A stretch of 64,000 nt of DNA from an uncultured Candidatus Saccharibacteria bacterium (GCA_964637575.1 CAZWVU010000002.1:18824-82823); one strand, 5' to 3'. Counted from the first letter of the stretch, positions 6,392 through 61,153 are shown. Numbers and translations are program-made. The notes: generated from the sequence alone by a model not told the origin.

Positions 6392-6416
6392 TAATCTCAG
6401 AACACCGCTCTTTACT

Positions 6417-6743: not shown

Positions 6744-6756
6744 CCGATGATACAGC

Positions 6757-6782
6757 AAGAGCCCCGCATCCGCGGGGCTCTT
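6757..6782 (+). promoter_or_regulatory. perfect 11-bp stem/4-nt loop hairpin between rpsJ and rplC (not followed by U-tract)
   Basis: aagagccccgc-atcc-gcggggctctt; 107-nt gap between S10 and L3 is unusually long for this operon. Confidence 0.5.
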
Positions 6783-6850
6783 GCGTTATAAGCGGCGTTT
6801 GTGTAGAATAGTAATCACTGTGTTTATTTTATTTCCACTTCAGGGAACAC

Positions 6851-7270: not shown

Positions 7271-7276
7271 ACTCCG

Positions 7277-7882
7277 ATGAAAGCCCAGGTCTACAATTTA
7301 AAAGGCGACGTGGTGGGGGATATTGAACTCTCCGACAAAATTTTCGCCCGCGAGTGGAATGCCGACCTGGTGCATCAGATCGCGCTGTCGCAGGCGGCCA
7401 ACCGCCGGCTTCCCTGGGCGCATTCTAAAAACCGCGGCGAAGTGCGCGGTGGCGGCGTGAAGCCGTGGAAACAGAAACATACCGGCCGCGCCCGTCACGG
7501 CTCCATCCGTTCTCCTATCTGGAAAGGCGGCGGTGTTACCCATGGACCGGTTGTTGAGCGCGATTACTCCAAGAAAGTGAATAAAAAAATGCTTCGGGTA
7601 GCGATCCATTCCGTGCTCTCCAAGAAATTGGCCGAGGGCCAGTTGCGGATCGTGGATTCCCTGCAAATTGAAGCTCCGAAAACGAAGCTCATGTTCAACG
7701 CGGTCAAAAGCCTTCTGCCGGCGCTGCTCGTTCCGGAAACCAAGCATTCCCAGATGGTGGGCCGCGCGTCCCGCAACATCCCGAAAGCGAAGTCACTGAA
7801 CGGCGCGTCCATTAACGTTGAGGATCTGTTGCGCTATAAAAATATCCTGCTCGAAAAAAACGCGGTGGCGGAAATTAAATAA
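7277..7882 (+). CDS. rplD: 50S ribosomal protein L4
   Basis: 201 aa; L4 sequence and position. Confidence 0.93.
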   Translation: MKAQVYNLKGDVVGDIELSDKIFAREWNADLVHQIALSQAANRRLPWAHSKNRGEVRGGGVKPWKQKHTGRARHGSIRSPIWKGGGVTHGPVVERDYSKKVNKKMLRVAIHSVLSKKLAEGQLRIVDSLQIEAPKTKLMFNAVKSLLPALLVPETKHSQMVGRASRNIPKAKSLNGASINVEDLLRYKNILLEKNAVAEIK

Positions 7883-7883
7883 T

Positions 7884-8165
7884 ATGGACAAGACCATCAT
7901 CAAGAACCCGATCATCACTGAAAAAGCCACGATGCTCAGCGCCGACCGCAAGTACGTGTTTTTGGTTGCCAACCATGCCACCAAGCCGGAAATCAAAAAA
8001 GCGCTTCAACATATCTATAAGGTGAATGTGGAAAACGTCCAGGTAGTAAATACCCGTCCGAAACCCCGGCGCATGGGCGCTCACACGAACCTGAAGCCGG
8101 GATACCGGAAGGCGATCGTCACCCTGAAAGAAGGTCAGAAATTGGATGTCCTGCCGCACGCATAA
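7884..8165 (+). CDS. rplW: 50S ribosomal protein L23
   Basis: Start at MDKTIIKNPIITEKA (ATG 7884) right after L4 stop; L23 sequence. Confidence 0.9.
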   Translation: MDKTIIKNPIITEKATMLSADRKYVFLVANHATKPEIKKALQHIYKVNVENVQVVNTRPKPRRMGAHTNLKPGYRKAIVTLKEGQKLDVLPHA

Positions 8166-8179
8166 TATCCACTAATTTT

Positions 8180-9013
8180 ATGAAGCAATTTAAACCCACA
8201 AGTCCGTCACGGCGCCAGATGACCACCGTTCCTTACCGGGAGCTGATCACGACCCGCGAGCCGCACAAGCAGCTGACGATGCGTCTCCGCACCAACGCCG
8301 GCCGCAATAACCGCGGTGTCATTACCACGCGTCATCAGGGCGGCGGCAACAAAAAAATATACCGTGTCGTGGATTTTCTTCAGAATAAAGTAGGTATTCC
8401 GGGCCGGGTGGAAACCGTTGAGTATGATCCGTACCGCAGCGCCTTCATCGCGTTAATTTCCTACAAAGACGGGGAGCGCCGCTATATTCTGGCGCCGAAG
8501 GATCTTAAAGTGGGAGACATGATCGTGACCGCGGAGCAGGCTGAACTGAAACCAGGCAACCGGCTGAAGATCAAAAATGTTCCGGTCGGCTACCAGGTCC
8601 ATAATGTGGAAATCCGCGCGGGAGGCGGCGCCCGCCTGGCCCGCTCCGCCGGCGCCTATGCCGAAGTGCTCGCCCATGAAGGCGGCCTTACCGACCTCCG
8701 TCTTGGCTCCAAAGAAATCCGCAAGGTTTCTTCCGAAGGCTGGGCTTCCATTGGACAAGTTTCCAATCCTGATTATAATCTTACGAATATCGGAAAAGCC
8801 GGCCGTTCCCGCTGGCTGGGCATCCGCCCGACTGTGCGAGGCACGGTCATGAATCCGGTAGATCATCCGTACGGTGGCGGTGAAGGCAAACAGCCGCGTG
8901 GCACCAAGCGTCCGAAGACAATGTGGGGCAAGATTACCGGCGGCCGGAAGACCCGTCACGCGAAAAAGTGGTCGTCCAAATGGATCGTCCAGCGGCGTCC
9001 GAAAGTCCGCTAA
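8180..9013 (+). CDS. rplB: 50S ribosomal protein L2
   Basis: 277 aa; ...NPVDHPYGGGEGK... hallmark. Confidence 0.97.
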   Translation: MKQFKPTSPSRRQMTTVPYRELITTREPHKQLTMRLRTNAGRNNRGVITTRHQGGGNKKIYRVVDFLQNKVGIPGRVETVEYDPYRSAFIALISYKDGERRYILAPKDLKVGDMIVTAEQAELKPGNRLKIKNVPVGYQVHNVEIRAGGGARLARSAGAYAEVLAHEGGLTDLRLGSKEIRKVSSEGWASIGQVSNPDYNLTNIGKAGRSRWLGIRPTVRGTVMNPVDHPYGGGEGKQPRGTKRPKTMWGKITGGRKTRHAKKWSSKWIVQRRPKVR

Positions 9014-9022
9014 TAAAATAAT

Positions 9023-9364
9023 ATGTCACGCTCAAGCAAAAAAGGTCCTTTCGTGGATCCAAAATTAATGAAGAAGATCTCCAGGCTGAAGACCGGCGAC
9101 AAGACGGTTATTAAGACGTGGTCGCGTGATTCGGAGATCGCGCCGGAAATGGTGGGCTTCACCATCGGGGTACACAACGGCAAATCCCACATCGAAGTGC
9201 TGATTAAGGAAGAGATGGTCGGTCACCGTCTGGGTGAGTTTTCTCCGACGCGCAAATTCGTAAAACATGGAGGTAAGATGCAGCGTGAATTGGAGGTCGC
9301 CGCGCAGGCCGCGGAAGCGCAGAAAGCCGCCGCCGCGAAAACCGCGCCTGAAGCCAAGAAATAA
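9023..9364 (+). CDS. rpsS: 30S ribosomal protein S19 with ~20-aa Ala/Lys-rich C-terminal extension
   Basis: [15 protein letters not shown]...GHRLGEF typical S19; extra tail ...[22 protein letters not shown]. Confidence 0.95.
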
Positions 9365-14169: not shown

Positions 14170-14772
14170 ATGGAACAAACTACCCCAACAACTCAACAGA
14201 CTGAACAAAAACCCGCGGGAGCTGCCCCGGCAGCCGGCGGACGGCCAGGTTTCGGCCGGCCGGGAGCCGGAGGAAGACCCGGTTTTGGCGGGCGCCCGGG
14301 CGGTCCGCGGCGTTTTGGCGCGAAGCCGAAGGAGGTTTTGCCGATGGGACTGAAAGATAAAATGCTGGATCTGCGCCGCGTTACCCGCGTGGTTGCCGGC
14401 GGCAAGCGTTTCCGTTTCCGCGCGACGATCGTGCTCGGCAATGAAAAGGGCAAGCTGGGCATCGGCGTGGCCAAAGGATTGGACGTGCAGGCTGCGATCG
14501 CCAAGGCGAAGAACGCCGCGCTGAAGAACCTGATCGACATCAAACTCAAGGGCCGGACGATCCCGCACGAAGTGGAAGCGAAGTTCAGCGCCGCGCATGT
14601 CCGCATCAAGCCGGCGAGCGAAGGGCACGGTTTGAAGGCCGGCGGCGCGGTCCGTGTGGTCCTTTCCATGGCGGGCGTGAAGGATGTTACCGCCAAGTGC
14701 CTCGGCCGCACACCGAATAAACTGACCAACGCGCTCGCGACTGTGGAAGCGTTAAAAAACCTTAAGGTGTAG
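14170..14772 (+). CDS. rpsE: 30S ribosomal protein S5 with ~55-aa Gly/Arg/Pro-rich N-terminal low-complexity extension
   Basis: ...GGRPGFGRPGAGGRPGFGGRPGGPRRFG... (in-frame nucleotide repeats) then canonical S5 dsRBD and C-terminal domain. Confidence 0.93.
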   Translation: MEQTTPTTQQTEQKPAGAAPAAGGRPGFGRPGAGGRPGFGGRPGGPRRFGAKPKEVLPMGLKDKMLDLRRVTRVVAGGKRFRFRATIVLGNEKGKLGIGVAKGLDVQAAIAKAKNAALKNLIDIKLKGRTIPHEVEAKFSAAHVRIKPASEGHGLKAGGAVRVVLSMAGVKDVTAKCLGRTPNKLTNALATVEALKNLKV

Positions 14773-14782
14773 AATTAAAACC

Positions 14783-15178
14783 ATGCAATTACACGAACTC
14801 AAACCAGCCCATCCCTTAAAGGACAAGAAGCCGCGCGTCGGCCGCAGCGGCAAGCGTGGCACGACTTCCGGCAAGGGGCAAAAAGGACAAAAAGCGCGCG
14901 CGGGCCGCAAGATGCGTCCGGCAGAGCGTGATTTTTATATGCGCCTTCCGAAATTGCGCGGCGTGAAGAATAAGCCGAAGGAAGCTCCGTTAGAGGTTAT
15001 CAGCGTTGGCAATCTGGATCATTTCGCGAAGGACGGCGTGGTCAGCGAAAAAATACTTGGCCGCAAAGTGAAGGTTCTCGGTGACGGTGAAATCAAAACG
15101 AAAATTACCGTGGAAGGTCTTCCTGTTTCCGAGTCGGCGAAACAAAAAATAGAAGCCGCGGGCGGAAATGTTAAGTAA
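14783..15178 (+). CDS. rplO: 50S ribosomal protein L15 (follows S5 directly; no L30 gene)
   Basis: 131 aa L15; only 10 nt separate it from rpsE so rpmD is absent at its usual locus. Confidence 0.93.
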   Translation: MQLHELKPAHPLKDKKPRVGRSGKRGTTSGKGQKGQKARAGRKMRPAERDFYMRLPKLRGVKNKPKEAPLEVISVGNLDHFAKDGVVSEKILGRKVKVLGDGEIKTKITVEGLPVSESAKQKIEAAGGNVK

Positions 15179-16442: not shown

Positions 16443-16564
16443 GTTGGTTTTGTGTCGGTTGCGCTTTTGACCAGCTCCTCCTTCTCCTCGGCAGGACGTC
16501 GGGCTACAATCCTGCCTGTGGGAAAGAGGAGCTGGCCTTAACTTAACCCTTTCACAAAACCAAC
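16443..16564 (+). repeat. structured repeat family 1, copy 1 (core 16471-16535), nested in a 12-bp outer inverted repeat
   Basis: GTTGGTTTTGTG...CCAGCTCCTC-CTTCTCCTCGGCAGGACGTCGGGCTACAATCCTGCCTGTGGGAAAGA-GAGGAGCTGG...CACAAAACCAAC; begins 1 nt after secY stop. Confidence 0.8.
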
Positions 16565-22674: not shown

Positions 22675-25014
22675 TTAGCCGCGGAGGCGCTTGAGAATAT
22701 CCGCCTCGACTTCCTGGCGGTTGCGGCCATAGATCTGCCGGGACTGCTCTTTTAATTTCGATGCGAGTCCCTCGATAAACCGCGGCGAGCGCAATATCAA
22801 TTTCATGTTAAATGGCCGCGAAGTCTGGCCGTTGATCAGCAACTTCACTAGCGCGTTCAGATTGTCGATATTCACGAGATCATTCTCGGTGAACACCGGC
22901 TCAAACTGTTTGATAAGAAATTTCGCATCGTCGGCGCCCACCCGGAAGACGACCTGTGAGCCGACGTTACCGAAGACCGCGTCGCGGATTTTTTCAGCAA
23001 GTTGGGCGATGAACTGATGCGCCACCACCAGATTGAGCCGGTATTTGCGCGCCTCGGAAAGGATCGTCGCAATCGAATCGGTCGTGAAATTCTGGAACTC
23101 ATCGATGTATAGATTAAAATCCTTGCGCTGTTCCTGGGGGACGTCCACCCGTGACAGCGCGGCAAGCAAAACTTTCCCTACTACTACCATCCCGAGAAGT
23201 CCCGCATTGATATCCCCTATTTTGCCCTTGGAAAGGTTTACCAAAAGAATTTTCCCCTCGTCCATGATAGTCCGGAAATTCAACGAGGAGATAGGTTGGC
23301 CGATAATCGGGCGCATGTAATCGTTGGCGATAAAGTTGTTGAACTTGGAGGTGATGTACGGCGTCATATTGGCGAGCGAAGCGTCACCGCCGGCTTTGGC
23401 TGCCTCCTTGCTCCAAAAGTCGATCACGGTCGGGTTGGTCGCCTTTTCCAGCAAGCGCTTCCGGAATTCTGGATCGGTAAAGATTCGCGGCACCTCCATG
23501 AGCGTGGCGCGTTCGCCGGCATCATCCATTAACAGCAAAAGCGCGTTCCGCATGTACTGCTCAAACATCGGCCCCATGGTTTCGGCCGTAAAAAGTTTAT
23601 TAAAAATGCTTTGCATTTCGTTCACGATGAACGTCTTCTGTTCCGGCCGGGCTGGATCGTATTCCAGCATGTTCAGCCCGAACGGTTTCTCGATGTCTCC
23701 CGGGTCAAACACGATCACATCCTTGAACCGGTCCGCGGGAATATTGCCCAGCACCTCCTCGATGAGCTCTCCATGCGGATCCACTACCGCCGCGCCTTTA
23801 CCGCTTTTAATATCCGAAATAACCATATTGGAAAGCAAGGTGGATTTACCGGTGCCGGTCTGTCCGACTATATACACATGCCTCCGGCGGTCGTCGTCGG
23901 TAATATACACCGGCTTGGTTTCGCCGCGGAATGAGCTCTCTCCTATCAGGGTGCCGCTTGCCGGTAACACCGTCGGCGGCGGGGCTTCATGGGCCTTCAC
24001 CCATTTGATTTTGGGTATTTCCGTGCCGGCGGTGGGAAGATGCCAGATTCCGGCAAGCTCGTCAGCTCCGAGAATCATGGATTGCGCCGGGTCGAACTCC
24101 CGGAATACATACTGAAAGATCAGCTTTTGCGGGTTCTTCGCCTCCACCACCTTGAATTCATTATGGCCGGGTGCGGTGAACTGATTGAAGGAGCCGGTGA
24201 GATTATACAACAATTCTTCCGCGCGGTACGGCGACACAGCTGAGCTCACGAGACGGATATTCACATCAAATAACGGCTTGGAAGCTTTCTGGGTGAGAAG
24301 TTTGGCCGCCTCTTCATCAACGATCACCGGCTCCATGGATTCTCCCGGCTTAGGCTTTTTCGGCGAGAACTGCTTTCCTGCCAGCGCGTCCATCAGCTTC
24401 GCGCCGCGCTTCAGATTATAGATAATCTTCGCGATGTTTTTCCCCGTTGAAGGCTGGGCCGGTTTCGCAGTGATCTGCAACGAGAGTCCTTCACCCGTTT
24501 GCTCCACTTTAGAGAAGTTGTTAAGGATCGGCAGAAAGGTGTCTATGCCCGCCTCGATGCATGACCGCACCGGCAGGGCGTAATGCAGTTTTTGTTTTAA
24601 AAACGCCGCCCGCGACGCTCCTTCCGAATTGAATATGGTGTAGTCCTCGGCCGGCGTTACCTGCGCGTCGTGCCACAATCCCTGGATCTGCCGCGCCGCA
24701 AAATCGAGCGCGGTTTCCGGGACCGCCAGGTAAAAATGAATGTCCTCGCCAACGTTATGCACCGAGACTTCCAGTGAAAAGGGAATTTTCAGATTGGAAA
24801 GCAGGCCAAAAAGCTGGCTTGAAAAATTAATCTCTTCCAGTGGTTTTTGCTCGGCGGCCGGTTTTTGGGAAAGACGGATGGAAAGGAGCTTCAGTTTCAA
24901 GAGATTCGCAAACCGCCGGCGGCTTCGGCTGACCGCAATAACAATACTCGCGACCGCCACCACTATCAACACCGGAACTCCGAATGAAACGGCAAGCGCA
25001 ATGATATTCTGCAT
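22675..25014 (-). CDS. membrane-anchored FtsK/HerA-superfamily ATPase, type IV coupling protein (VirD4/TraG/TraD)-like
   Basis: 779 aa; one N-terminal TM (positive residues after it); Walker A YIVGQTGTGKSTLL; Walker B NLYIDEFQNF; ARKYRLNLVVAHQFIAQL resembles coupling-protein QxxxQL block. Confidence 0.7.
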   Translation of the reverse strand: MQNIIALAVSFGVPVLIVVAVASIVIAVSRSRRRFANLLKLKLLSIRLSQKPAAEQKPLEEINFSSQLFGLLSNLKIPFSLEVSVHNVGEDIHFYLAVPETALDFAARQIQGLWHDAQVTPAEDYTIFNSEGASRAAFLKQKLHYALPVRSCIEAGIDTFLPILNNFSKVEQTGEGLSLQITAKPAQPSTGKNIAKIIYNLKRGAKLMDALAGKQFSPKKPKPGESMEPVIVDEEAAKLLTQKASKPLFDVNIRLVSSAVSPYRAEELLYNLTGSFNQFTAPGHNEFKVVEAKNPQKLIFQYVFREFDPAQSMILGADELAGIWHLPTAGTEIPKIKWVKAHEAPPPTVLPASGTLIGESSFRGETKPVYITDDDRRRHVYIVGQTGTGKSTLLSNMVISDIKSGKGAAVVDPHGELIEEVLGNIPADRFKDVIVFDPGDIEKPFGLNMLEYDPARPEQKTFIVNEMQSIFNKLFTAETMGPMFEQYMRNALLLLMDDAGERATLMEVPRIFTDPEFRKRLLEKATNPTVIDFWSKEAAKAGGDASLANMTPYITSKFNNFIANDYMRPIIGQPISSLNFRTIMDEGKILLVNLSKGKIGDINAGLLGMVVVGKVLLAALSRVDVPQEQRKDFNLYIDEFQNFTTDSIATILSEARKYRLNLVVAHQFIAQLAEKIRDAVFGNVGSQVVFRVGADDAKFLIKQFEPVFTENDLVNIDNLNALVKLLINGQTSRPFNMKLILRSPRFIEGLASKLKEQSRQIYGRNRQEVEADILKRLRG

Positions 25015-27349: not shown

Positions 27350-27378
27350 CCCCCGATTTTCGTCGGGGGATTTTTTAT
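27350..27378. terminator. bidirectional rho-independent terminator
   Basis: cccccga-ttttcg-tcggggg + ATTTTTTAT; minus-strand transporter gene ends at 27375. Confidence 0.7.
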
Positions 27379-28592
27379 ATGCTGAAATCTTCCAATGATT
27401 TTTGGAGCGATCCCAGTATTGCAAAACAGATGAACGCTGCTAGGAGCGCCTGAAGAATCGGAATGCCGAAAGGGATGAACGCGACGCTGCAGCCGACCAG
27501 CCAGGCGCACAGCGCGGGGATGCACACCCGCAGCCTGGAAAAATCAGCTTTCACAAAGTACTGATTGGCCAGCACCACGCCGATGATCGGCGAGAAAACC
27601 GTACCGAGGATCATCAGCCAGCTGTCCAGCTTGCCGACAATGCCGAGCATGGCCAGGAAAACCGATACCATCCCAAAGCCAATGGTGTAGGGTTTCCGTT
27701 TTATCTCCAGCGTCTGTTCCGTATCTTTGGGCAGAGCGGAAATAGCGGCGAAACCGGTACCCACCGGGAAGACCGCCTGGGCGCCGCAGAGATTGTCCAC
27801 GGTCAAAAGTGCATAGACCAGCACCGGGCCGCTCATCAGTTTCAGCGTCGCCAGCACATCGTAACTCTTGCCGGCGATCGCGAAGGCGGCTCCGAATCCG
27901 CCGACCAGAATGGCCGTCGGCACCATTCCCCAGAACGCGGCGAGGAACACTTTTTTCTTACTGCCGAGATCGTGGAGAAAGTCCGGGATCACCACCGCAG
28001 CGGAGATGAACGAGGCGATCAGTAGGTGTATGCCGGCGGGAAACCCGCCGCCCGCTTCGCTCTCCGGCTGATACGCCAGAAGACGCAGCGTGCCGACCTT
28101 TTTGAAGATCGCGCTCGCTCCCCAGAGCAGGAACAGGAGCATCGCCGGGATGGACACCCAGCTTAACTTCGCCATCCGTTTCAATCCACCTACCGCGAAC
28201 CACATGGTCAGGAGGCCATAGACGGCCAGCGTGACGTGGAAGGACGATGTGCCCTTCCGGAATCCGAGTACGGTCGCGAGCGCCGTGCCGCCGATCTCCA
28301 CCACCACCGCGTACCAGCCGATCTGTGAAAGCGTCGGCAGGAGCAGGATAAATTTCCCGCCGCCCGAACCGAATGCCTCACCAAACAAGACATCTTTTGG
28401 CTTTCCGCCGCCGGCGTAGAACGCGAAGATGATAGCAAATATGACATTCGCCACCGCGATCGCTCCCAGCGCTTCCGGGAACGTCAGCGTCTTCGTGAGC
28501 AATCCGCCGATGTAAAGATACCAGGCCGAGAAGATCCAAAACGAAAGCAAAACCGCCCTGCTCATCCAGCTTTTCATCCTTTGTCCTTTCAA
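27375..28592 (-). CDS. membrane transporter, purine-cytosine permease (NCS1)-like
   Basis: 405 aa, ~12 TM; overall resemblance to CodB-type permeases; family assignment is tentative. Confidence 0.45.
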   Translation of the reverse strand: MKGQRMKSWMSRAVLLSFWIFSAWYLYIGGLLTKTLTFPEALGAIAVANVIFAIIFAFYAGGGKPKDVLFGEAFGSGGGKFILLLPTLSQIGWYAVVVEIGGTALATVLGFRKGTSSFHVTLAVYGLLTMWFAVGGLKRMAKLSWVSIPAMLLFLLWGASAIFKKVGTLRLLAYQPESEAGGGFPAGIHLLIASFISAAVVIPDFLHDLGSKKKVFLAAFWGMVPTAILVGGFGAAFAIAGKSYDVLATLKLMSGPVLVYALLTVDNLCGAQAVFPVGTGFAAISALPKDTEQTLEIKRKPYTIGFGMVSVFLAMLGIVGKLDSWLMILGTVFSPIIGVVLANQYFVKADFSRLRVCIPALCAWLVGCSVAFIPFGIPILQALLAAFICFAILGSLQKSLEDFSI

Positions 28593-29106: not shown

Positions 29107-29183
29107 TATGATGGAAAATGCGAGGTTGCGTGTTTTGAGGGAATATCTCGGAGCTTTCTTCTTTTAAAAATAAGAGCGAAGTT

Positions 29184-29243
29184 TTCTGCTTCTTCCCGCA
29201 GACAGGATTGTAGCCCGACGTCCTGTCGAGGAGAAGAACAGAA
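29184..29243 (-). repeat. structured repeat family 1, copy 2 (reverse orientation)
   Basis: reverse complement reads TTCTGTTCTTC-TCCTCGACAGGACGTCGGGCTACAATCCTGTCTGCGGGAAG-AAGCAGAA; between convergent GNAT and ychF genes. Confidence 0.8.
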
Positions 29244-29256
29244 GACGAGCGAATCC

Positions 29257-30469: not shown

Positions 30470-30543
30470 ATACCGCCCTCAGAACTTGTTAAATCCTATA
30501 TTTTTTAACATAATTTGTCCAGGACATTAAAAGGAGAACTGGG

Positions 30544-31680
30544 ATGGAAATACACAGAATCGCGCTCGCGGGCAGTGACTGCAGCGGGAAATCCTCGGCG
30601 GAACCGTTCCTGCGCGAAGCGCTGAAAAAGCTTGGCTACTACGTAGTATTCGTGCCGGAAGGCGCCACGCGGGTCATTCTTCAGTACGGCTTGAACCCCG
30701 GAGAAATGCGGCGGCTGGATCCGGCGCGCTATTACCAATTTCAGAAACTGATCGTGCAGACTCATCTCCGCGAGGAGCAGCTGGCGATCGAACACGCCCA
30801 GCGCTTCGCGGACTGCGACAAGATTGTCGTCATCTACGACCGCGGCGTGATGGACGCCAAAGCCTACATGGACACGGAAGATTTCCACCGGCTGGTGCAT
30901 GAGCTCGGGCACACCGTCATGGGAGTACGCGACGGACTCTACGACCTCGTCTGCCATCTGGTGACTGCCGCGGATGGAGCGTTGGAGGCCTATGAAAAGG
31001 CCGTCCGGAATAATCCGGCAAGGAGAGGACGTTCGGCGGCTGACGCGATTCAGATCGACCGGCTGATCAAACATGCCTGGCTCGGCCATCCGCACTACCG
31101 CATCATCGATAACTCCAGCGATTTTGACGGCAAGATGCAACGTCTGCTTGAGGTAATAAAGAAAGAACTGGGTGTCCCGGAGCGGATTGAAATGGAACGG
31201 AAATTTCTTGTACATGCCCCGCCGGATATTTCCCGCGTTCCCGTGCCGCGCGTTCCGATCGGCATCTTTCAGTCGTATATTCTCGGTGAAGAGCGGATGC
31301 GGGCGCGTATGTGCAGTCAGGACGGGGAGGGAATGCTCTACTACCAGACACGCAAGATTCCCACCGCCTCCCCCATTTCCGCGGTGGAGCTGGAGGACCG
31401 GATTACCGCCGGGGAATACTGGCGGCTGATCCGGAACCGCGACCCGGAACTGGAAGAAATCTGCAAAACGCGCCATTATTTCATCCACGAAAACCAGTAC
31501 TTTGAACTCGACGAATTCCTGTATCCCGAGCGGCTGAAGGGACTCTGGATTCTGGAAATTGAACTCACCAACGAAACCGACCCGGTAATACTCCCCGGCT
31601 GGCTCGGCCCGATGACCGAAGTTTCCACCGATAAGCGGTACAAGAACCGCGTGCTCGCGAGAAAACCGAACACCGCCTAA
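30544..31680 (+). CDS. fusion protein: N-terminal P-loop NTPase/kinase domain + C-terminal CYTH (triphosphate tunnel metalloenzyme) domain
   Basis: IALAGSDCSGKSS Walker A; C-terminal half opens ...RIEMERKFLV... (ExExK CYTH signature); RBS aaggagaactggg. Confidence 0.65.
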   Translation: MEIHRIALAGSDCSGKSSAEPFLREALKKLGYYVVFVPEGATRVILQYGLNPGEMRRLDPARYYQFQKLIVQTHLREEQLAIEHAQRFADCDKIVVIYDRGVMDAKAYMDTEDFHRLVHELGHTVMGVRDGLYDLVCHLVTAADGALEAYEKAVRNNPARRGRSAADAIQIDRLIKHAWLGHPHYRIIDNSSDFDGKMQRLLEVIKKELGVPERIEMERKFLVHAPPDISRVPVPRVPIGIFQSYILGEERMRARMCSQDGEGMLYYQTRKIPTASPISAVELEDRITAGEYWRLIRNRDPELEEICKTRHYFIHENQYFELDEFLYPERLKGLWILEIELTNETDPVILPGWLGPMTEVSTDKRYKNRVLARKPNTA

Positions 31681-31693
31681 GGCGGTGTTTTTT
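31670..31693 (+). terminator. rho-independent terminator (stop codon in loop) followed by conserved promoter-like motif
   Basis: caccgcc-taa-ggcggtg + TTTTTT; then ...ttttttAGTACTCTAAGCTCGG. Confidence 0.65.
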
Positions 31694-31752
31694 AGTTGCC
31701 AAAACCGCAATTTTTTAGTACTCTAAGCTCGGTTCGTTAAGAAAGGATTGCT

Positions 31753-33039
31753 ATGAAGCAGGCAGTGCTCGTCGATGGCGTGCGGACGCCGTTTATCAAA
31801 GCGGGTTCGTCCACAAAGCTGAGAGCGAAATGGTTTGGCTCTCTTCCCGTGCTCGAGCTGATGGAGCGTTATGACGCGCTCCGCACCAGCATTGATTCGG
31901 TGGTCGGCGCCAACATCGGCAACCAGATACTTCCGCCCGACGGCTCCAACATTGCGCGCATCATCGCGATTTGTTGCAACATTCCCCAGGAAGTGGATGC
32001 GCGGACGCTCAATATCAACTGCGGGAGCGGCCTTGAGGCCGTGATCGACGCCGCGATGCGCGTGGAGGTCGGCATGGCGAAGTGCGTGCTCGTGACCGCG
32101 GTGGAAGTGATGTCCGATTACACGGCCGCGTACGGACGCGAACAGCGGCAAAAGTTTGCCGAACTGAACACGCTCGCCCGCGCAAAGACGCCAATGTGGA
32201 GGAAAGGTCCCGGACTCGCCCTGAAAGCCGCGGGCGTCCGGGCAATGAAGCACGATCCGCAGTGGCTGATCAAGCTCGGCCTGACCGACCCGATGTCCGG
32301 CCTCGGCATGGACAAGATCGCCGACGCCATCGCCAAAGAATTCCAGATTTCCCGCAAGGAACTGGATCTCTACGCGCTGGAATCCCAGCGGCGGGCAACC
32401 CAAGCCCAAAAGTCGGGACGTTTGGCGAAAGAGATGCTGCATGCAAGCATCTGCACGGAACTGCACCTGCCGGAGCATGACAATGGCATCCGCGATGGCC
32501 AGACGCTGGAACAGCTCGCGAAACTCCGGCCGCTCAATGAAGGCGGTGTGACCACTCCCGGAAATTCTTCACAGGTTTCCGACGGCGCGGTCGCGCTCAT
32601 CATCGCGGATGAAGAGTTCGCCAAAGCCCAGGGATGGCCGGCGCTTGCCCGGGTAGGTTCGGCGCGGTCGGCCGTGGCCGGATGCGAGCCGTCCATGATG
32701 GGACTTGGTCCCGTCGCGGCGATCAAGAAATTGCTCTGCAAATTCGGCCGGACACCCCTGACTGCCTTTGACGTCATTGAAACCAATGAAGCATTCGCGT
32801 CAGTCGTGCTCGCTCAGAGCCGGCTTTTGGAAAAAGAAGGGATCGGTCCCCTCCCGATGGAGCAGACCAACGTCAACGGCGGCGCCATCGCCATCGGCCA
32901 CCCGGTCGGTGCCAGCGGCGCCCGCCTGGCGCTTACGGCGGCGCGGGAGCTCAAGGAGCGCAATAAGAAGTTCGCACTTGTGACGCTCTGCGTCGGCGGC
33001 GGCCAGGGCGTCGCCGCGATCCTCGAAAACGTCAGTTAA
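31753..33039 (+). CDS. acetyl-CoA C-acyltransferase (thiolase)
   Basis: 428 aa; NINCGSGLEAV (active-site Cys region), C-terminal GHPVGASGARL / LCVGGGQG thiolase signatures. Confidence 0.88.
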   Translation: MKQAVLVDGVRTPFIKAGSSTKLRAKWFGSLPVLELMERYDALRTSIDSVVGANIGNQILPPDGSNIARIIAICCNIPQEVDARTLNINCGSGLEAVIDAAMRVEVGMAKCVLVTAVEVMSDYTAAYGREQRQKFAELNTLARAKTPMWRKGPGLALKAAGVRAMKHDPQWLIKLGLTDPMSGLGMDKIADAIAKEFQISRKELDLYALESQRRATQAQKSGRLAKEMLHASICTELHLPEHDNGIRDGQTLEQLAKLRPLNEGGVTTPGNSSQVSDGAVALIIADEEFAKAQGWPALARVGSARSAVAGCEPSMMGLGPVAAIKKLLCKFGRTPLTAFDVIETNEAFASVVLAQSRLLEKEGIGPLPMEQTNVNGGAIAIGHPVGASGARLALTAARELKERNKKFALVTLCVGGGQGVAAILENVS

Positions 33040-33051
33040 ATTCATCCAAAA

Positions 33052-33077
33052 CCAGTGGACAACCCACTGGTTTTTTT
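33052..33077 (+). terminator. rho-independent terminator after thiolase
   Basis: ccagtgg-acaa-cccactgg + TTTTTTT. Confidence 0.7.
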
Positions 33078-33092
33078 GTACTATATCGGCGG
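33071..33092 (+). promoter_or_regulatory. conserved promoter/operator-like motif TTTTTTTGTACTATATCGGCGG
   Basis: Near-identical motif at 35229-35250 (TTTTTTTGTACTATAGCGTCGG), related one at 31688-31709; each directly after a terminator and ~30-45 nt before a beta-oxidation gene. Confidence 0.5.
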
Positions 33093-33110
33093 TACATTCA
33101 GAGGAGATTT

Positions 33111-35199
33111 TATGAAATTCTGGAAGGCGGAGATCGACAACGCGGAGCACGCGGTGCTCACGCTGGACCTCGGTCCGGAGGAAAAGCAGAACAAGCTGCG
33201 GGTGGGAGCGATCGAGGAGCTTGATGAATTTCTCAAGTCCAACATCCTGAATTCGCTCGTGATCTGCTCGGCCAAGCCGGACAGTTTCTGTGCCGGCGCC
33301 GACATCGAGGAAATCCGGGAAGCATTCCGGCACCCCGAAGAAGTCAACGCGCTTTTTGCCCGGATTGACAGTATCGCCGATCGTCTTCTCAACGCCCCGT
33401 TCCCTTCTGTCGCCGCGATCAGCGGTGCCACATTGGGAGGCGGCCTTGAACTGGCGATGATGTGCACCGAGCGGATCGCCGTGGATACGCCGAAGACGGT
33501 TTTCGGCCTGCCCGAGACGTCGCTCGGCATCATTCCCGGATTCGGCGGCACGCAAACCTTGCCCCGGATCGTGGGGCTGCGGAAAGCTGCGGAAATTATT
33601 CTCGGCGGGGCTTTCAAAAAGCTTTCGGCCAAGGATGCATTGAAATGCGGCCTGATCTCAAAGATCGTCAACTTCCCCAGCACGTTGCTGGAAAGCGCCA
33701 GGGAACGCGTCCGGCATCTCGGATCGTCCGGGTATCGAAATGGCGCAAGACATACCCCCGGCATTGAAAAGATTCCCTTCTTCGGCCGCCGGATGATTCT
33801 GAAAGGTGCCAAAACGCAGACGCTCCGCCTGACAAAAGGCGTCTATCCGGCGCCGTTGAAAGCGATTGAGGCGATGCGCAAAAGTGCCTGCAGTTTCAGT
33901 ACTGGACTGGCCAACGAACACCGGCTTTTCAAGGAATGCCTGAGAACGGATGAGGCGAAAAGCCTGATCAGTCTCTACTTCCTTCGGGAAGAAGCGCGGT
34001 CAAAGAAATGGGTGGATGCACCGCCGCAGGCTCCGCCGAAACGGCTGGGCGTGATCGGCGCCGGAAACAAAGGTCAGGGCATGGGCAAAGGAATCGCCTA
34101 TGCCGCAATCTCGGCCGGCATCCCGACCCTCCTTCACGACGTGAGCCCTGACAATCTCCATGATGCCGTCGTGCTTATTGGAAAATCGTTGATGGCCGAA
34201 GTGAAGAAGGGCAAACTGACGGCAGATCAGGCGAATGCGCGGCTCGGACTCCTCTCCTGGAGCTATGGCACGCGCTACGAAAGTTTCCCCGGCTGCGATT
34301 TCGTGATCGAGGCGATCACCGAAAACCTGCAGTGGAAACATGATCTGCTCGGAACGCTCGGGCTTATGCTTCCGGAGTCAACGGTGGTTGTCACCAACAC
34401 CTCTTCCCTGCTTCCGAGCGAAGTGGGCAAGTCGTTCCCGTGGAAAGAGAGTTTCGCGGCGATGCATTTCTTCAATCCGGCAGAGAAGATGGAGCTGGTG
34501 GAAATCGCCGGCACGCCGGACACGAAACCGGAGACGATCGCAAGAGCGCTGACGCTTACCAGAATGCTCGGCAAGACCCCGGTCGTCCTGGACAAGGAAT
34601 GCGCGGGACTCGTGGTCAACCGGATCCTGCTCCGCGGCGTCGGCCGTGCATTCACGGAAACCTTCCGCCACGGCGTGAATCCCTGGCTGATCGACGAAGC
34701 ACTGGAACATACCGGCTGCGCGATGGGCCCGTTCAAAACATCGGACCAGGTCGGATTCGACACGGCCGCCCACGTCCTGAAGATCATGTCCGAATGCTAT
34801 CCGGCAAACTATCCGGAAACGATCAAGGACCTGAACCTGGCCGGCAATAAAAACGTGCTGGGCAAAAAGACCGGCCGCGGGTTCTACTTTTGGAAGGACG
34901 ACAAAGTCCTCAAACCGAACGCCGACATTTTCTCCGACCTCCAGATACCCTTCGACCGGCAGAACATCGAGGCCACTGCTGCGTTTGCCGCAACCGAAGT
35001 GATGGTTGAAATGCGGCGGGAAGCGCTCGACCTGATCAGCGAAGGCGTCCTGAAATCCGGCGATATGATCGATCTCGCGATGATCCTCGGCGCCGGCATC
35101 TGTCCGAACCACCGCGGCATCCTCGGCCTGCGGGAAAAAGTGGAACTGCCGAAGCTCTCCGAATCCGAGGAGCTCGACCTCCGCAAGCTCTCACCATAA
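33111..35199 (+). CDS. bifunctional enoyl-CoA hydratase / 3-hydroxyacyl-CoA dehydrogenase (FadB/FadJ-like)
   Basis: Crotonase motifs (CAGADI, GGGLELAM, GLPETSLGIIPGFGGTQ) then NAD-binding GVIGAGNKGQGMG; start at MKFWKAE (ATG 33111, RBS ggagga). Confidence 0.85.
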
Positions 35200-35207
35200 A
35201 ACCCAAA

Positions 35208-35235
35208 CCGCACTTTACATAAGTGCGGTTTTTTT
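35208..35235 (+). terminator. rho-independent terminator after fadB-like gene
   Basis: ccgcactt-tacat-aagtgcgg + TTTTTTT, immediately followed by GTACTATAGCGTCGG motif. Confidence 0.7.
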
Positions 35236-35281
35236 GTACTATAGCGTCGGAACTTTCACATCTCATTTTTGGAGGAAATGT

Positions 35282-37363
35282 ATGGGACTCGATGTCGGAA
35301 AGCAGTTGGGTGCCGGCGCCGCGATTGCCGAGGAAACCCGTGGTAATGAGCGGTTGTCCGGTCTGATGGCCAAACTCTTCAAGGGAAAACTGGATATGAA
35401 CCAGCTTTTCCGATGGAAAGAAAGGGAACGACCGGAAAATCCGAATGTCGCGAAGATGTGCGCGAAGCTCGCGCAGTTTCTGATCCACGATGTGGACGCG
35501 GAATTGATCGAGCGGACGCACGCGATTCCACCCCCGGTGGTGAAGTGGCTCTGTGACAACAACTATTTCGGCCTCAAAATTCCGGAAGAGTACGGCGGCA
35601 TGGGATTCGCCCAGTCGGAGTATATGAAAGTGCTCCAGCTCGCCGCTACCTACTCGGGAGCCATCGTGGCGCTCCTTTCGGCGTCGAATACGATCGGCGC
35701 CGGCTGGCCGGTGATGGCCTATGGATCGCCGAAACAAAAAAATAAGTGGCTGCCCATGCTCGCGAAGTGTCCGTCGGCGTTCGCCTTTACCGAGGAGAAG
35801 GCCGGCTCGGATCCTTCTGCGATGGAGACGGTGGCAATCCGGGTCTACGAGGATCCAAAAGCCCCTGAGCCGTATGAGTGGGAAATGGAAAGGCCAAGGG
35901 CCATTGGCTATCGCCTTTACGGCCGGAAGTGGTGGACCACCAACGGTCCTTCCAGCGCCGCCGCCTTCATCTCGCCGGTGATCATTGTGATCGCGAAGAT
36001 CGTGAACGAACCGGACGAGCTGAAGATGAACGCCGGAAACAAGGATTACAAACCCTGCTTCGGCGCCTTCATCGTCCCGACCAATGCCGAAGGAATCAAG
36101 ATTGTTCAACGCTGCGAGTTCGCCGGGCTTCATGGCATCTACAATGGCATCACTGATTTCGAGAACTGCTACGTTCCGCGTGAGCAGCTGCTCGGCAAGA
36201 AGGTGGTGCGGCTTCATGAAGATGCCAGCGCATACCTAAACGCCCGGCAAAAGTTGGGTTACGAGCCCGATGCCGACGATGAAGTCGAAATGTTCTGCGA
36301 AGAAGGTTCGGGCTTCAAGATCGCGCTGGAAGCGCTGAACAGCGGGCGGATCACGCTCGCCGGTTCCTGCGTGGCGATGGCGAAGAACTGCGTCTCCGCC
36401 GGCAAGTGGTGGGGCAACACGCGATTCCAGTGGGGCAAACTCATCGGTCAGCATGAGGCGGTCGGCAGCGGCATTCTCGTGAATGACCTCGCCACCACCT
36501 TCGCGCTGGAAGCGATGATCTGGTACGCCGCTCTGCAAGCGGATGAGCACCGTGATTGCCGCATGGAAGCCGCCACCTGCAAGGTCCTGGCGTCCGAACG
36601 CGCCTATCAAATCGCCGACAATTTCCTGCAGATGCGCGGCGGACGCGGCTACGAAACCGCCGCATCGCTGGCACAGCGCGGCGAAGCGCCGCTGCCGGCG
36701 GAACGCTGGTGGCGCGACGCGCGCATCAACCGCATCTTTGAGGGAGAGTCCGGCACCCTGCTCCGCATGTTCGTCGTCCGCGAAGGGCTGAACGACTATA
36801 TGGAGCGCGGCAAGATCTTTTTTGAAAAGGATCACCGCTGGCAGAAATTGAAAACGGCCGCCGGATTCGGCATGGACCTCATGTCCAACCGGATCCCGGG
36901 TTCACTGGGCGCCATGCCTCATGTGCACACCCTGCTCAAGCCGCACCTCCGGTTCATTGAGAAGAGCGCCCGCCGGCTCGCCAACGCGATCATTCTCGCG
37001 TCGGGAAAGCACCGGCACAAGCTGCCCAACAAACAGCTGACGCTCCGCCGGATCTTCGAGATCGCCGCCGAGCTGTACGCCATGGCAACCGCCTGCTCGT
37101 ACGTCGCCTGGCTGAAGGAACACTTCGACCACGTGAACGAACACAATGCGGGGCTTTGGAATAACCGCTTCGCGCAGCTCGCGAATCTCTATTGCCTGGA
37201 AGCCCGGAAACGGGTTGAGCAGGAATTCGCGGCGCTTGCCTCCAACAGTGATGCCGAAGCCCGCGGGGTCGCGAAGGACCTTCTCGGGGGCGGCATGGAC
37301 GCCTGGGTCAAGGACAATATCGTTCCGACCGTGGACACCCTCGGCCTCGAAAGGAAAGAGTAA
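35282..37363 (+). CDS. acyl-CoA dehydrogenase (long form)
   Basis: 693 aa; ACAD N/middle/C domains (…GMGFAQSEYMKV…FAFTEEKAGSDPSAM…FEGESGTLLR…); start at MGLDVGKQ (ATG 35282, RBS ggagga). Confidence 0.85.
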   Translation: MGLDVGKQLGAGAAIAEETRGNERLSGLMAKLFKGKLDMNQLFRWKERERPENPNVAKMCAKLAQFLIHDVDAELIERTHAIPPPVVKWLCDNNYFGLKIPEEYGGMGFAQSEYMKVLQLAATYSGAIVALLSASNTIGAGWPVMAYGSPKQKNKWLPMLAKCPSAFAFTEEKAGSDPSAMETVAIRVYEDPKAPEPYEWEMERPRAIGYRLYGRKWWTTNGPSSAAAFISPVIIVIAKIVNEPDELKMNAGNKDYKPCFGAFIVPTNAEGIKIVQRCEFAGLHGIYNGITDFENCYVPREQLLGKKVVRLHEDASAYLNARQKLGYEPDADDEVEMFCEEGSGFKIALEALNSGRITLAGSCVAMAKNCVSAGKWWGNTRFQWGKLIGQHEAVGSGILVNDLATTFALEAMIWYAALQADEHRDCRMEAATCKVLASERAYQIADNFLQMRGGRGYETAASLAQRGEAPLPAERWWRDARINRIFEGESGTLLRMFVVREGLNDYMERGKIFFEKDHRWQKLKTAAGFGMDLMSNRIPGSLGAMPHVHTLLKPHLRFIEKSARRLANAIILASGKHRHKLPNKQLTLRRIFEIAAELYAMATACSYVAWLKEHFDHVNEHNAGLWNNRFAQLANLYCLEARKRVEQEFAALASNSDAEARGVAKDLLGGGMDAWVKDNIVPTVDTLGLERKE

Positions 37364-37370
37364 TACCCAA

Positions 37371-37398
37371 AGGACTGGTTAAAACCAGTCCTTTTTTA
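37371..37398. terminator. bidirectional terminator
   Basis: aggactggtt-aaa-accagtcct + TTTTTT; minus gene 37379..37741 ends within it. Confidence 0.65.
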
Positions 37399-37741
37399 AT
37401 TGTTCAAGAATATCATCCGGAATTGGTATCTGCTTGCCCGGTTTCGATTTTCCCGGATAGCGCCAGGCGGAGATCATGATCTTTTTCGGTCCGCCGAAGC
37501 GCGGCGTAATGCGGGCGCCCTCTTCCGTGGTTGCGTACATTACCCATATTTCTTCTTTACGTTTCGGCGTATCGTTCCGCTTCATCGCCGCGAGCGTGCT
37601 CGGCGCGACGCCCTCCTCTTTCCGGTCGGGAGTCTTCAGGATTGTCTTAATTTTCTGTTCGGAAATACGGTAAAACAGCATTTTGTTCTTAATGTGCGAC
37701 GTCCAGCGGTACTGGGAATCATTTTTAGGGAATTTGATCAC
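37379..37741 (-). CDS. hypothetical protein (120 aa)
   Basis: ORF with basic composition, no family recognised. Confidence 0.45.
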   Translation of the reverse strand: MIKFPKNDSQYRWTSHIKNKMLFYRISEQKIKTILKTPDRKEEGVAPSTLAAMKRNDTPKRKEEIWVMYATTEEGARITPRFGGPKKIMISAWRYPGKSKPGKQIPIPDDILEQLKKDWF

Positions 37742-39862: not shown

Positions 39863-40015
39863 CCAGGAAATTCCGTAGGGAATATCTCGGAGCTGATGCG
39901 GCTGGCCTGACACATGGTTGCGTCAGAGCCAAGGGTGCCTTGCGCATCGGCGAGAGCTAAGTGGTGCGCGAGGCCGCTGAAGCCGAGCGACACCCGGTTC
40001 CCGGGAATTTCCTGG
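39863..40015 (+). repeat. structured repeat family 2, copy B, bounded by 12-bp inverted repeat CCAGGAAATTCC / GGAATTTCCTGG
   Basis: Core 39887-39955 tcggagcTGATGCGGCTGGCCTGACACATGGTTGCGTCAGAGCC...GCCTTGCGCATCGGCGAGA matches 4944-5013 with compensatory change (GATTCG/CGAATC vs GATGCG/CGCATC); lies in 364-bp gap between convergent genes. Confidence 0.65.
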
Positions 40016-47138: not shown

Positions 47139-47176
47139 CTATTAAAAGTATAGCATTTGATTCCTTTTCTTTTTTA

Positions 47177-47243
47177 GCCAGTGCCTTCTTCTCCTCGCCA
47201 GGACGTCGGGCTACAATCCTGTCTGCGGGAAGAAGGCACTGGC
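47177..47243 (+). repeat. structured repeat family 1, copy 3
   Basis: GCCAGTGCCTTCTTC-TCCTCGCCAGGACGTCGGGCTACAATCCTGTCTGCGG-GAAGAAGGCACTGGC (15-bp perfect outer stem). Confidence 0.8.
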
Positions 47244-47566
47244 TTCACGACAAGACTATTTTGCAAACGTAATCTTGGGAGGTTACGGGTTGAAGCAGCG
47301 CGGTTGGTATTTAAAAAAGCCCCGGCAGGGTGTTCCGGACACCGCAGGGATTTCCCCGCGCAGCCCAGAACCCCAACCGGAGCGTAATATGTTTTTTACT
47401 ACTTTTAATCGTACCACAAAAAATCCCCTCCGCGGGCTACGAAGCCGCACGGAGGGTGTGAACGAGGTCTTGAAAAACTATCCCGAAGTAAGAGCCGAAA
47501 GCGCTTGTTCAAGGACGACCTTTGTCTCTTACTTCGGTGCGGAAAATATACCTAAATTTTTTATTA

Positions 47567-55100: not shown

Positions 55101-55196
55101 CTTACTAAAAGTATATCATACGGCTTGCCTGTCCCGGCCGCCGCCAACCTCTCGTCGGACTCGGACATCCGGGAATTTCCTCGGGCTGACTCGCCC

Positions 55197-55255
55197 CTGC
55201 CTCCTTCTCCTCGCCAGGACGTCGGGCTACAATCCTGCCTGCGGGAAGGAGGCAG
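55197..55255 (+). repeat. structured repeat family 1, copy 4
   Basis: CTGCCTCCTTC-TCCTCGCCAGGACGTCGGGCTACAATCCTGCCTGCGG-GAAGGAGGCAG. Confidence 0.8.
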
Positions 55256-55323
55256 GAGCTTCCAACTTTTCTAACCGCGGAATTTCTTTGGTTACCTCGC
55301 TGGATTTCTTTCTGTCATTGCGA

Positions 55324-60634: not shown

Positions 60635-61120
60635 ATGAGCCGCACCGTGAGAATTCGCGCGACCAGGAAAAACGGCGAGGGATTGGACTGCGTGCTCCTG
60701 GTGTTGGAAACCGGCGAGCACAAAACGATCAATCCAAACTTCAGTTTCGACAAGGGCGCGGGCTGGGGTCTTCCCGGCGGACGAGTCCAGCCCGGAGAAG
60801 ACATCTGGAATGCCGCGATCCGGGAATTCAAGGAAGAAACGGGATTGCCAGGAGAAACGATTATTCCTCCCGACCCGGCGGCGCGCATCAAGCACACGGA
60901 AAGCCATGTCATCCTGCTTTTCGAAGCCAAGGATCCGGATGGCGCGCTTCTCCCCCAGGATCCGGCGATCGTCCGCGCGGAATGGGTTCCGCTGGCGTAT
61001 CTGATTCCCGACGAGGACGGCAGAATCCAGCCGATCCCCCACAACGGGAAAGAGTATCCGGTGTATGCGATGCACCAGCCGATGATCCTTCTCAATTTTT
61101 CAAACGTGACCCTGGTCTGA
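60635..61120 (+). CDS. NUDIX hydrolase
   Basis: Nudix box GGRVQPGEDIWNAAIREFKEETGL. Confidence 0.88.
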   Translation: MSRTVRIRATRKNGEGLDCVLLVLETGEHKTINPNFSFDKGAGWGLPGGRVQPGEDIWNAAIREFKEETGLPGETIIPPDPAARIKHTESHVILLFEAKDPDGALLPQDPAIVRAEWVPLAYLIPDEDGRIQPIPHNGKEYPVYAMHQPMILLNFSNVTLV

Positions 61121-61135
61121 CCAGGGTCTTTTTTA
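61108..61135 (+). terminator. rho-independent terminator (stop codon in loop)
   Basis: gaccctgg-tctga-ccagggtc + TTTTTT. Confidence 0.65.
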
Positions 61136-61153
61136 TGCTAGAATACTATTTAT

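Follow-up and report, generated by a model that had tools for sequence, protein, structure and literature searches.

In Salmonella, the overlap of a terminator with the promoter that follows it links the expression of adjacent operons and constrains gene order, an arrangement named 'operon concatenation' (PMC6735719). Post-termination RNA polymerase (RNAP) is also able to slide and to reinitiate at nearby promoters (Tenenbaum et al., bioRxiv 10.1101/2023.02.10.528045). Both descriptions are relevant to a locus found in a 64-kb window of the genome of an uncultured Candidatus Saccharibacteria bacterium (GCA_964637575.1 CAZWVU010000002.1:18824-82823; the window, or W, is this whole stretch of 64,000 nucleotides). 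The locus carries three consecutive genes in the same orientation coding for a thiolase, a FadB-like hydratase/dehydrogenase and a long acyl-CoA dehydrogenase (ACAD). This beta-oxidation trio was recognized in the original prediction and all three assignments are confirmed by domain matches. Judging from its sequence, each gene of the trio is probably a transcription unit of its own, consisting of an intrinsic terminator followed by a sigma70-type promoter that belongs to a lineage-wide template of leadered genes and not to a pathway-specific operator.

The enzymes themselves have well-described counterparts. The E. coli fad regulon (fadBA, fadIJ and fadE under FadR), Bacillus FadR (YsiA) and Pseudomonas PsrA concern the same enzyme trio and raise the same question of coordinated control. 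In these models, a single operon encodes thiolase and alpha subunit and regulation acts through palindromic operators, whereas the locus described here comprises three predicted monocistronic units with no palindrome, no identifiable regulator and a motif common to unrelated genes. Patescibacteria are in general described as lacking beta-oxidation (PMC11809585). A published report nevertheless assigns it to 'Ca. Parcunitrobacter nitroensis', where the gene set is of short-chain type and has an electron transfer flavoprotein (ETF) next to it (Castelle et al. 2017, PMC5220378).

Probable terminator-bounded units in the beta-oxidation trio

Signals were read from the DNA sequence over ~77 kb of this genome, i.e. 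the window and ~13 kb of flanks (L010 and L011), and over ~16 kb in each of seven orthologous loci from relatives (L001, L002, L004 and L006 to L009), which together with W make eight genomes. Coordinates are those of W unless a locus is named. Twenty-two upstream sites, orthologous or paralogous and drawn from the eight genomes, were aligned, and a position weight matrix (PWM) was derived from them.

Upstream of each gene of the trio there is one copy of the pattern GTACT[AC]TA, at 31718, 33078 and 35236, and the 64-kb window contains no other. Three copies compare with an expectation of 0.39, and this count was not attained in any of 100 shuffles. Even when up to three mismatches are tolerated, the 21-nt pattern TTTTTNGTACTATANCGNCGG matches these sites alone (expected 0.06), and an independent repeat search recovers them as a 43-nt three-copy family. 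No further GTACTMTA was found in the ~13 kb of flanking extension.

Each gene of the trio is indeed preceded by an intrinsic terminator, four hairpins with T-tracts bracketing the genes (Table 1). Their stems of 10-11 bp are followed by at least five T, with folding energies of -15.7 to -16.2 kcal/mol and z-scores of -4.1 to -5.7. A predicted promoter accompanies each of the terminator-bounded genes. The three -35-like hexamers (TTGCCA, TGGACA and TTTACA) each match TTGACA at five of six positions and are separated from TACTCT or TACTAT by exactly 17 nt, and the conserved string GTACTATA corresponds to a G followed by the -10 hexamer, with TACTAT as its core. At the second and third sites, upstream of FadB and ACAD, the -35 lies within the hairpin of the upstream terminator, at the end of the 5' arm and in the loop, and terminator and promoter overlap (33048-33084 and 35205-35242). 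No such overlap exists at the first site; a gap of 5 nt there separates the end of the terminator from the -35.

Several details of the original prediction have to be amended accordingly. The first site was placed at 31688, which is the T-run of the terminator itself; its actual position is 31712-31732. About 20 nt, including the -35-like TTGCCA, separate this terminator from a second T-run that adjoins the motif. A U-tract leading straight into the motif is thus correct for the second and third sites but not for the first, whose adjoining T-run is not that of the terminator. The T-tract had been proposed to act as an UP element. It is located at about -13 to -20, in the 3' half of the 17-nt spacer, instead of at -40 to -60, and being inside the spacer it is not an UP element; positions -40 to -46 fall in the 5' arm of the hairpin and contain no more than a short A-run. 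Finally, a GGAGGA ribosome-binding site was described ~30-45 nt after the motif. The Shine-Dalgarno (SD) sequences are found 22-36 nt from the motif start and only one of them is GGAGGA, the others being AAAGGA and GAGGAG.

The geometry of sigma70 promoters places the start at C(-1)/G(+1)/G(+2), with a core-recognition contact at +2G. As the conserved 3' half of the motif is fixed 5 nt from the -10, it reads as a discriminator, a start site and the first ~10 transcribed nucleotides. The 'nnCGnCGG' element would then be a discriminator of 5-6 nt plus C(-1), G(+1) and G(+2), and transcription is predicted to start at the G located 7 nt after the -10. The discriminators of the thiolase, FadB and ACAD promoters are AAGCT, ATCGG and AGCGT, each followed by C(-1), by the predicted G(+1) at 31731, 33091 and 35249, respectively, and by G(+2). 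The 'nnCGnCGG' form holds only in part at the thiolase site, which has GC in place of CG (AAGCTCGG). The resulting leaders are short, ~20-35 nt and more precisely 22-34 nt, and end in an SD sequence: GGTTCGTTAAGAAAGGATTGCT with AAAGGA before the start codon at 31753 for thiolase, GAGGAG (33101-33106) before 33112 for FadB and GGAGGA (35271-35276) before 35282 for ACAD.

Table 1. Genes, terminators and predicted promoters of the beta-oxidation cluster and its borders (window coordinates)
Feature	Position	Strand	Characteristics
AAA_28/CYTH promoter	30509-30532	+	CATAAT-N5-CAGGACATT; same template; PWM 10.9
AAA_28 (N-terminal, NadR-kinase-like P-loop) + CYTH-like (C-terminal) fusion gene	30544-31680	+	Pfam AAA_28; CYTH recorded for the L009 ortholog
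Terminator T1, after AAA_28/CYTH gene	31668-31690	+	10-bp stem, loop TAA, T-run 31686-31693; -15.8 kcal/mol, z -4.1
Thiolase promoter	31696-31732	+	-35 TTGCCA 31696-31701; 17-nt spacer; -10 TACTCT 31719-31724; PWM 22.6
Thiolase (acetyl-CoA C-acyltransferase, FadA/FadI-like)	31753-33039	+	428 aa; Thiolase_N/C; TIGR01930 339.6 bits (cutoff 240.55)
Terminator T2	33048-33074	+	11-bp stem, loop ACAAC; -15.9 kcal/mol, z -4.1
FadB promoter	33056-33092	+	-35 TGGACA 33056-33061; 17-nt spacer (3' arm + T7 + G); -10 TACTAT 33079-33084; PWM 24.9
FadB/FadJ-like enoyl-CoA hydratase / 3-hydroxyacyl-CoA dehydrogenase (fatty-acid oxidation complex alpha subunit)	33112-35199	+	695 aa; ECH_1 + 3HCDH_N/C
Terminator T3	35205-35231	+	11-bp stem, loop TACAT; -15.7 kcal/mol, z -5.7
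ACAD promoter	35214-35250	+	-35 TTTACA 35214-35219; 17-nt spacer; -10 TACTAT 35237-35242; PWM 25.0
Long acyl-CoA dehydrogenase (VLCAD/ACAD9-like, extra C-terminal domain)	35282-37363	+	693 aa; Acyl-CoA_dh_N/M/1 + ACAD9-ACADV_C
Terminator T4, closes cluster	37369-37394	+	-16.2 kcal/mol, z -5.0
Small open reading frame (ORF)	37379-37741	-	~120 aa; converges on ACAD gene; no Pfam/NCBIfam match

Conservation of the junctions in relatives

The motif is kept in the orthologous regions of relatives, promoters and terminators recurring at the orthologous junctions of all seven loci. These loci come from Parcubacteria metagenome-assembled genomes (MAGs) and keep the layout -10, N5, CGG-WWC-NTT at the corresponding positions. 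In the 22-site consensus the -10 is TAnnAT and the gap that follows measures 5 nt in 19 sites, with an offset of 1 nt in the other three. After the gap come C (22/22), G (17/22), G (22/22), T/A, T/A, C (15/22), any nucleotide, T (21/22) and T (21/22), and then an A-rich sequence that extends into the SD region. The orthologs use TACAAT, TATAAT and TAAAAT as -10 hexamers. Of 19 beta-oxidation promoters, 16 have a -35-like hexamer, with at least four of six matches to TTGACA, at a distance of exactly 17 nt from the -10 (p ~1e-20). In the relatives, terminators were identified at 15 of the 16 internal junctions, and a terminator in the position of T4 follows the ACAD gene in all eight genomes. 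With an A-tract on its 5' side and a T-tract on its 3' side, T4 could serve the convergent small ORF as well.

Gene-specific variants are also conserved. Thiolase sites of L001, L002, L007 and L009 keep CGGTTC(G/A)TT or CGGTTACTT; the thiolase variant is CGGTTCGTT in W, L001 and L009, that of FadB is CGGCGGTACATT in W and L001, and that of ACAD is C(G/A)GAAC(A/T)TTT in W, L001, L002 and L009. The FadB and ACAD cassettes of W agree at 29 of 36 positions, against 21-22 of 36 in the comparison with the orthologous promoters of L001. Since the match within the genome exceeds the match between orthologs, these alignments suggest within-genome homogenisation of the two cassettes.

The location of the -35 in the terminator loop recurs in relatives with unrelated hairpin sequences, as TAGACA in L001 and L009, TGTACA in L002 and TTTTCA in L006 and L007. 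This recurrence argues for selection on the overlap itself. The same placement was found outside the trio, after fusA (3619-3683), before dnaX (~61108-61150) and, in the extension L011, before a hypothetical gene (~1000-1060, L011 1039), so that compact overlapping terminator-promoter modules seem to be a genome-wide habit.

Two loci depart from the common arrangement at the thiolase-FadB junction. In L009 (6145-6846) the two genes are separated by an extra ORF of 135 aa that has a template-type promoter of its own. In L008 the thiolase and FadB genes (5730-9040) overlap by their stop and start codons, a case taken up below.

The same template at other genes

The template, i.e. -10/N5/CRG-WWC as detected by PWM and regular expression, is not confined to the trio. 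It was found at an NCS1-type permease gene (27375-28592, minus strand) and at its ortholog in L002, at the NUDIX hydrolase gene 60635, at gene 3684 after fusA and at the AAA_28/CYTH gene 30544. Beyond the window it was found at an AAA_17 kinase-like gene of L004, at the hypothetical genes 1451 and 5117 of L008 and at 1076 in L011, the left extension; the ~13 kb of flanking extension contributed one promoter of the generic class. CRG occupies the fixed position in 9 of ~32 other leadered promoters, compared with 1/32 expected by chance (p ~4e-7). Among 76 upstream regions unrelated to beta-oxidation, AGTTC was counted 14 times for 4.1 expected (z 4.9) and GAACT 12 times for 4.3 expected (z 3.9), making them the most enriched k-mers after SD words and some G+C-rich words. 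The motif is not a property of all promoters either: those of ribosomal-protein and EF-Tu genes (577, 5189 and 6851) and many of leaderless type are devoid of it. It marks a subset of leadered genes.

Apparent leaderless mRNAs coexist with SD-led genes in these genomes. They are characterized by a TATAAT-like -10 located 6-9 nt before the start codon and by the absence of an SD sequence. Such cases occur upstream of 18546, 25414, 28652, 46410 (minus strand), 53592 (minus strand) and 61154, and at the YchF genes of L006, L007 and L008. No literature on start sites or leaderless transcription in the candidate phyla radiation (CPR) was found. To our knowledge, almost nothing is known experimentally about the transcription signals of CPR/Patescibacteria.

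The original prediction regarded 'nnCGnCGG' as a shared regulator site specific for the pathway and proposed to look for a regulator of the FadR, TetR or IclR type. The 22-site alignment displays neither dyad nor direct-repeat symmetry, its consensus CGG-WWC-N-TT-WA being asymmetric. No helix-turn-helix (HTH) regulator was found among the ~50 window proteins scanned or kept beside the cluster in the seven neighbourhoods; a TrmB-family HTH gene is present nearby in L004 only. Two specific operator types were considered and rejected. The pattern GTAC-N10-GTAC, taken as a dyad or direct repeat, is confined to the FadB sites of W and L001 and is missing from the 22-site consensus; it was rejected as a general feature. 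A Cheo-box-like GAAC-N4-GTTC has no second half-site when the aligned sites are read. Given the occurrence of the template at unrelated genes, the lack of symmetry, the fixed spacing from the -10 and the absence of a regulator among the proteins scanned, the element looks like a template for the start site and leader of this lineage's leadered genes, and the proposal of a pathway-specific site is not supported.

Proposed mechanism and comparison with known junctions

In the proposed mechanism, the intrinsic terminator would end the upstream mRNA and a housekeeping promoter of sigma70 type would restart transcription within ~45 bp. At the thiolase-FadB and FadB-ACAD junctions, the terminator loop supplies the -35, the 3' arm and the T-tract form the 17-bp spacer, and the -10 directly follows the T-tract. 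WWC-N-TT would lie in the initial part of the leader, which is short and unstructured and ends in the SD sequence. By analogy with the systems mentioned above, the overlap may couple the three units through promoter occlusion or through the hand-over of post-termination RNAP, which could result in operon-like co-expression from separate mRNAs.

The resemblance with operon concatenation (PMC6735719) is close. In both cases an upstream terminator overlaps the promoter of the next unit in the same orientation, evolution has preserved the arrangement, almost no neutral space is left in between, and a link of expression is proposed that involves no dedicated transcription factor. The differences are that the units described here are single metabolic genes in a CPR host instead of ribosomal or transcription operons, that their coupling is only proposed, and that their geometry is regular, with the -35 in the hairpin loop and a 17-bp spacer made of 3' arm and T-tract. 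Reinitiation by post-termination RNAP (bioRxiv 10.1101/2023.02.10.528045) shares with this locus a terminator followed by a same-strand sigma70 promoter at very short distance, for which coupling is predicted to be most efficient. It is a mechanistic analogy only, as polymerase and sigma factor here are those of a CPR bacterium. Terminator-promoter junctions that overlap and are built from ordinary sigma70 promoters are thus a known arrangement, and the present reading is a well-supported refinement that overturns no current ideas. Operon concatenation, described for enterobacterial ribosomal operons, would thereby reach metabolic genes of an ultra-small genome. The template drawn from the eight genomes (-35 in the terminator loop, 17-bp spacer, TAnnAT, N5, C(-1) R(+1) G(+2) WWC-N-TT) could improve the annotation of promoters, start sites and 5' untranslated regions in CPR genomes.

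Alternative explanations

Several observations weigh against separate units driven by a lineage-wide template. No terminator or promoter stands between the overlapping thiolase and FadB genes of L008, which means that separate units are not obligatory. Beta-oxidation promoters fit the template exactly in ~83% of cases and other leadered promoters in ~28%. The ratio of CGG to CAG is 18:2 at beta-oxidation sites and 2:7 elsewhere (Fisher p = 7e-4, a value inflated by shared ancestry). This uniformity and this preference for CGG make it conceivable that the beta-oxidation promoters are a subclass with its own regulation. In addition, the sequence examined is limited to ~77 kb of this genome and ~16 kb per relative, and the start sites and terminator efficiencies are predictions at all loci.

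Such a subclass would be expected if CGG-WWC-NTT were the operator of a dedicated FadR-like repressor, responsive to acyl-CoA, that binds over +1 and co-regulates the three genes and possibly AAA_28/CYTH. The greater uniformity of the beta-oxidation sites and their preference for CGG are in line with this explanation, as are a placement over +1 that is typical for repressors and the conservation of the element gene by gene in eight genomes between which FadB identity is only 44-58%. The TrmB-family HTH gene of L004 also lies two genes upstream of a CGGAAC-type promoter and divergent from it. A repressor is nonetheless improbable. Neither a dyad nor a direct repeat is apparent in the aligned sites, no HTH regulator is found in the window or kept beside the cluster, and the fixed distance from the -10 fits a contact with start site or polymerase better than an independent operator. 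Moreover, permease, NUDIX, kinase-like and hypothetical genes share the template, and GTTC/GAAC k-mers are enriched upstream of genes foreign to beta-oxidation. The initiating nucleotide and the discriminator could themselves matter: with a GG start after a G+C-rich C-S-K-C-G-G, output would track GTP or a stringent-type signal, as at the +1G promoters of Firmicutes, most other leadered or leaderless genes starting with A. The identity of +1 is linked to NTP sensing for the rRNA promoters of B. subtilis and E. coli. CGG is present at 18 of 20 beta-oxidation sites and CAG at 7 of the 9 template sites elsewhere, the A of ATG is the starting nucleotide of leaderless candidates, and the discriminators of W, L001, L002 and L009 are G+C-rich. 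This control is a shade less probable than a repressor, for the argument is purely inferential and alarmone or GTP control is without known basis in CPR. The distant relatives L004, L006, L007 and L008 combine the same CGG with A+T-rich discriminators (AAGTT, AGCTT), two orthologous ACAD promoters use CAG, and the statistics are inflated by shared ancestry.

Least probable is an action at the RNA level, in which the 5' end of the leader, GGWWCNUU, would bind a protein or a small RNA, or pair with the SD region, and thereby tune translation or stability. Conservation does reach ~10 nt into the predicted transcript and a few leaders can pair CCUU/CUUU with the SD sequence (L002_fadB, L007_acad and L004_thl), but this pairing is not kept between orthologs. 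The folding of 23 leaders gave z-scores from -2.6 to +1.3, with nothing significant or common, and no Rfam family matched the window at gathering threshold; a riboswitch or other RNA element was rejected on the same grounds. CsrA-type GGA pairs were likewise discarded, as they suit the ACAD leaders and not those of thiolase and FadB. Separate units with a generic sigma70-type promoter remain the preferred reading. A bolder version of it would make the overlapping modules a device of streamlined genomes that hands terminated RNAP to a hairpin-embedded promoter, giving operon-like co-expression with individually tunable mRNAs, and would add that the GG-initiating CGG-WWC-NTT marks a small lipid-scavenging regulon of host-dependent Parcubacteria controlled at the start site by the level of GTP or by an unknown factor. 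Little probability is given to this version.

Enzymes and inheritance of the trio

The beta-oxidation trio is, by its sequence, catalytically intact, all catalytic motifs being kept. The thiolase contains NINCGSG, GHP and CVGGGQG (Cys/His/Cys), the FadB-like protein GGGLE, PETSLG, NTS and HFFNP, and the ACAD the catalytic-base (Glu) motif FEGE. Among solved structures, those closest to FadB are chains deposited as 'fatty acid oxidation complex subunit alpha' (E 4e-93), and those closest to the ACAD are ACAD9 and VLCAD (E ~1e-39 to 1e-33). Neither ETF nor acyl-CoA synthetase was found among the ~50 scanned window proteins, in the gene calls of both flanking loci (~13 kb) or in the 16-kb loci of the relatives. 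Like the genes of 'Ca. Parcunitrobacter nitroensis', those of the trio are co-located in a genome of the Parcubacteria superphylum and divergent from non-CPR homologs (Castelle et al. 2017, PMC5220378). In that organism the ACADs are of short-chain type (GDH, SBCAD), hydratase and dehydrogenase have a gene each, and an ETF and an iron-sulfur oxidoreductase are adjacent, whereas here the alpha subunit is a FadB/J-type fusion and the ACAD a long VLCAD/ACAD9-like enzyme.

A fatty-acid degradation pathway had seemed at odds with the reduced-ribosome features of the window, and either the lineage or the metabolism was suspected to be unusual. The CPR assignment stands: the closest named matches of the window EF-Tu, 79-96% identical, are Patescibacteria/Parcubacteria (Harrison-, Jorgensen-, Lipton- and Wolfebacteria, Gr01-1014_3/_19), and S5 is directly followed by L15 without L30. 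The trio is in turn rare for CPR, with the published Parcubacterium as a precedent. The S5-L15 gap measures 10 nt with no L30 gene in between (14170-15178), which fits the lack of bL30 in CPR. No tRNA gene was detected in the 64-kb window.

An identical FadB protein is already on record, and the next relatives, 39-58% identical, come from MAGs, some of them labelled Parcubacteria. Across the seven compared loci, FadB identity is 44-58% and the neighbourhood YchF-(AAA_28/CYTH)-thiolase-FadB-ACAD-small ORF (minus strand)-PMT_2-...-alanine racemase (Alr) is kept in all. Synteny maintained at this level of divergence indicates that the trio is ancestral to the subclade and vertically inherited. 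The horizontal acquisition envisaged in the original prediction is accordingly rejected for this clade as a recent event. Homologs outside it (Bdellovibrio, Omnitrophica and Planctomycetes) are only ~35% identical. The locus documents a vertically inherited trio of long-chain type in a Parcubacteria subclade, which bears on the use of host or environmental lipids by such organisms. The AAA_28/CYTH gene is directly upstream of the trio in six of the eight genomes (W, L001, L004, L006, L007 and L009), and the small ORF is found at the same place, with 100-140 aa, in seven relatives with gene calls. The neighbourhood also comprises a large ATPase of ~780 aa (22675-25014, minus strand) that resembles type IV secretion coupling proteins (TrwB/VirD4/DUF87, DUF8128); it is kept at the left ends of L002, L007 and L008.

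Other repeats in the window

Two further intergenic repeats were observed. A hairpin of ~70 nt is present in four copies, at 16468-16540 (plus strand), 29180-29250 (minus strand), 47172-47248 (plus strand) and 55190-55264 (plus strand). Its core CTTCTCCTCG.CAGGACGTCGGGCTACAATCCTG.CTG.GGGAAG is conserved, and the outer stem varies while remaining complementary within each copy. With folding energies of -26 to -40 kcal/mol (z -3.0 to -5.7) and no Rfam match, this hairpin could be an element similar to repetitive extragenic palindromes or miniature inverted-repeat transposable elements (REP/MITE-like), or an undescribed small structured RNA. The second repeat has two copies that are 87% identical, one in the long region upstream of tuf (4935-4987) and one after the PMT_2 gene (39878-39930). 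Its sequence reads ...TCGGAGC(C/T)GAT(T/G)CGGCTGGCCTGAC(G/A)CATGGTTGCGTCAGAGCC and includes the internal inverted repeat CTGACGCATGGTTGCGTCAG.

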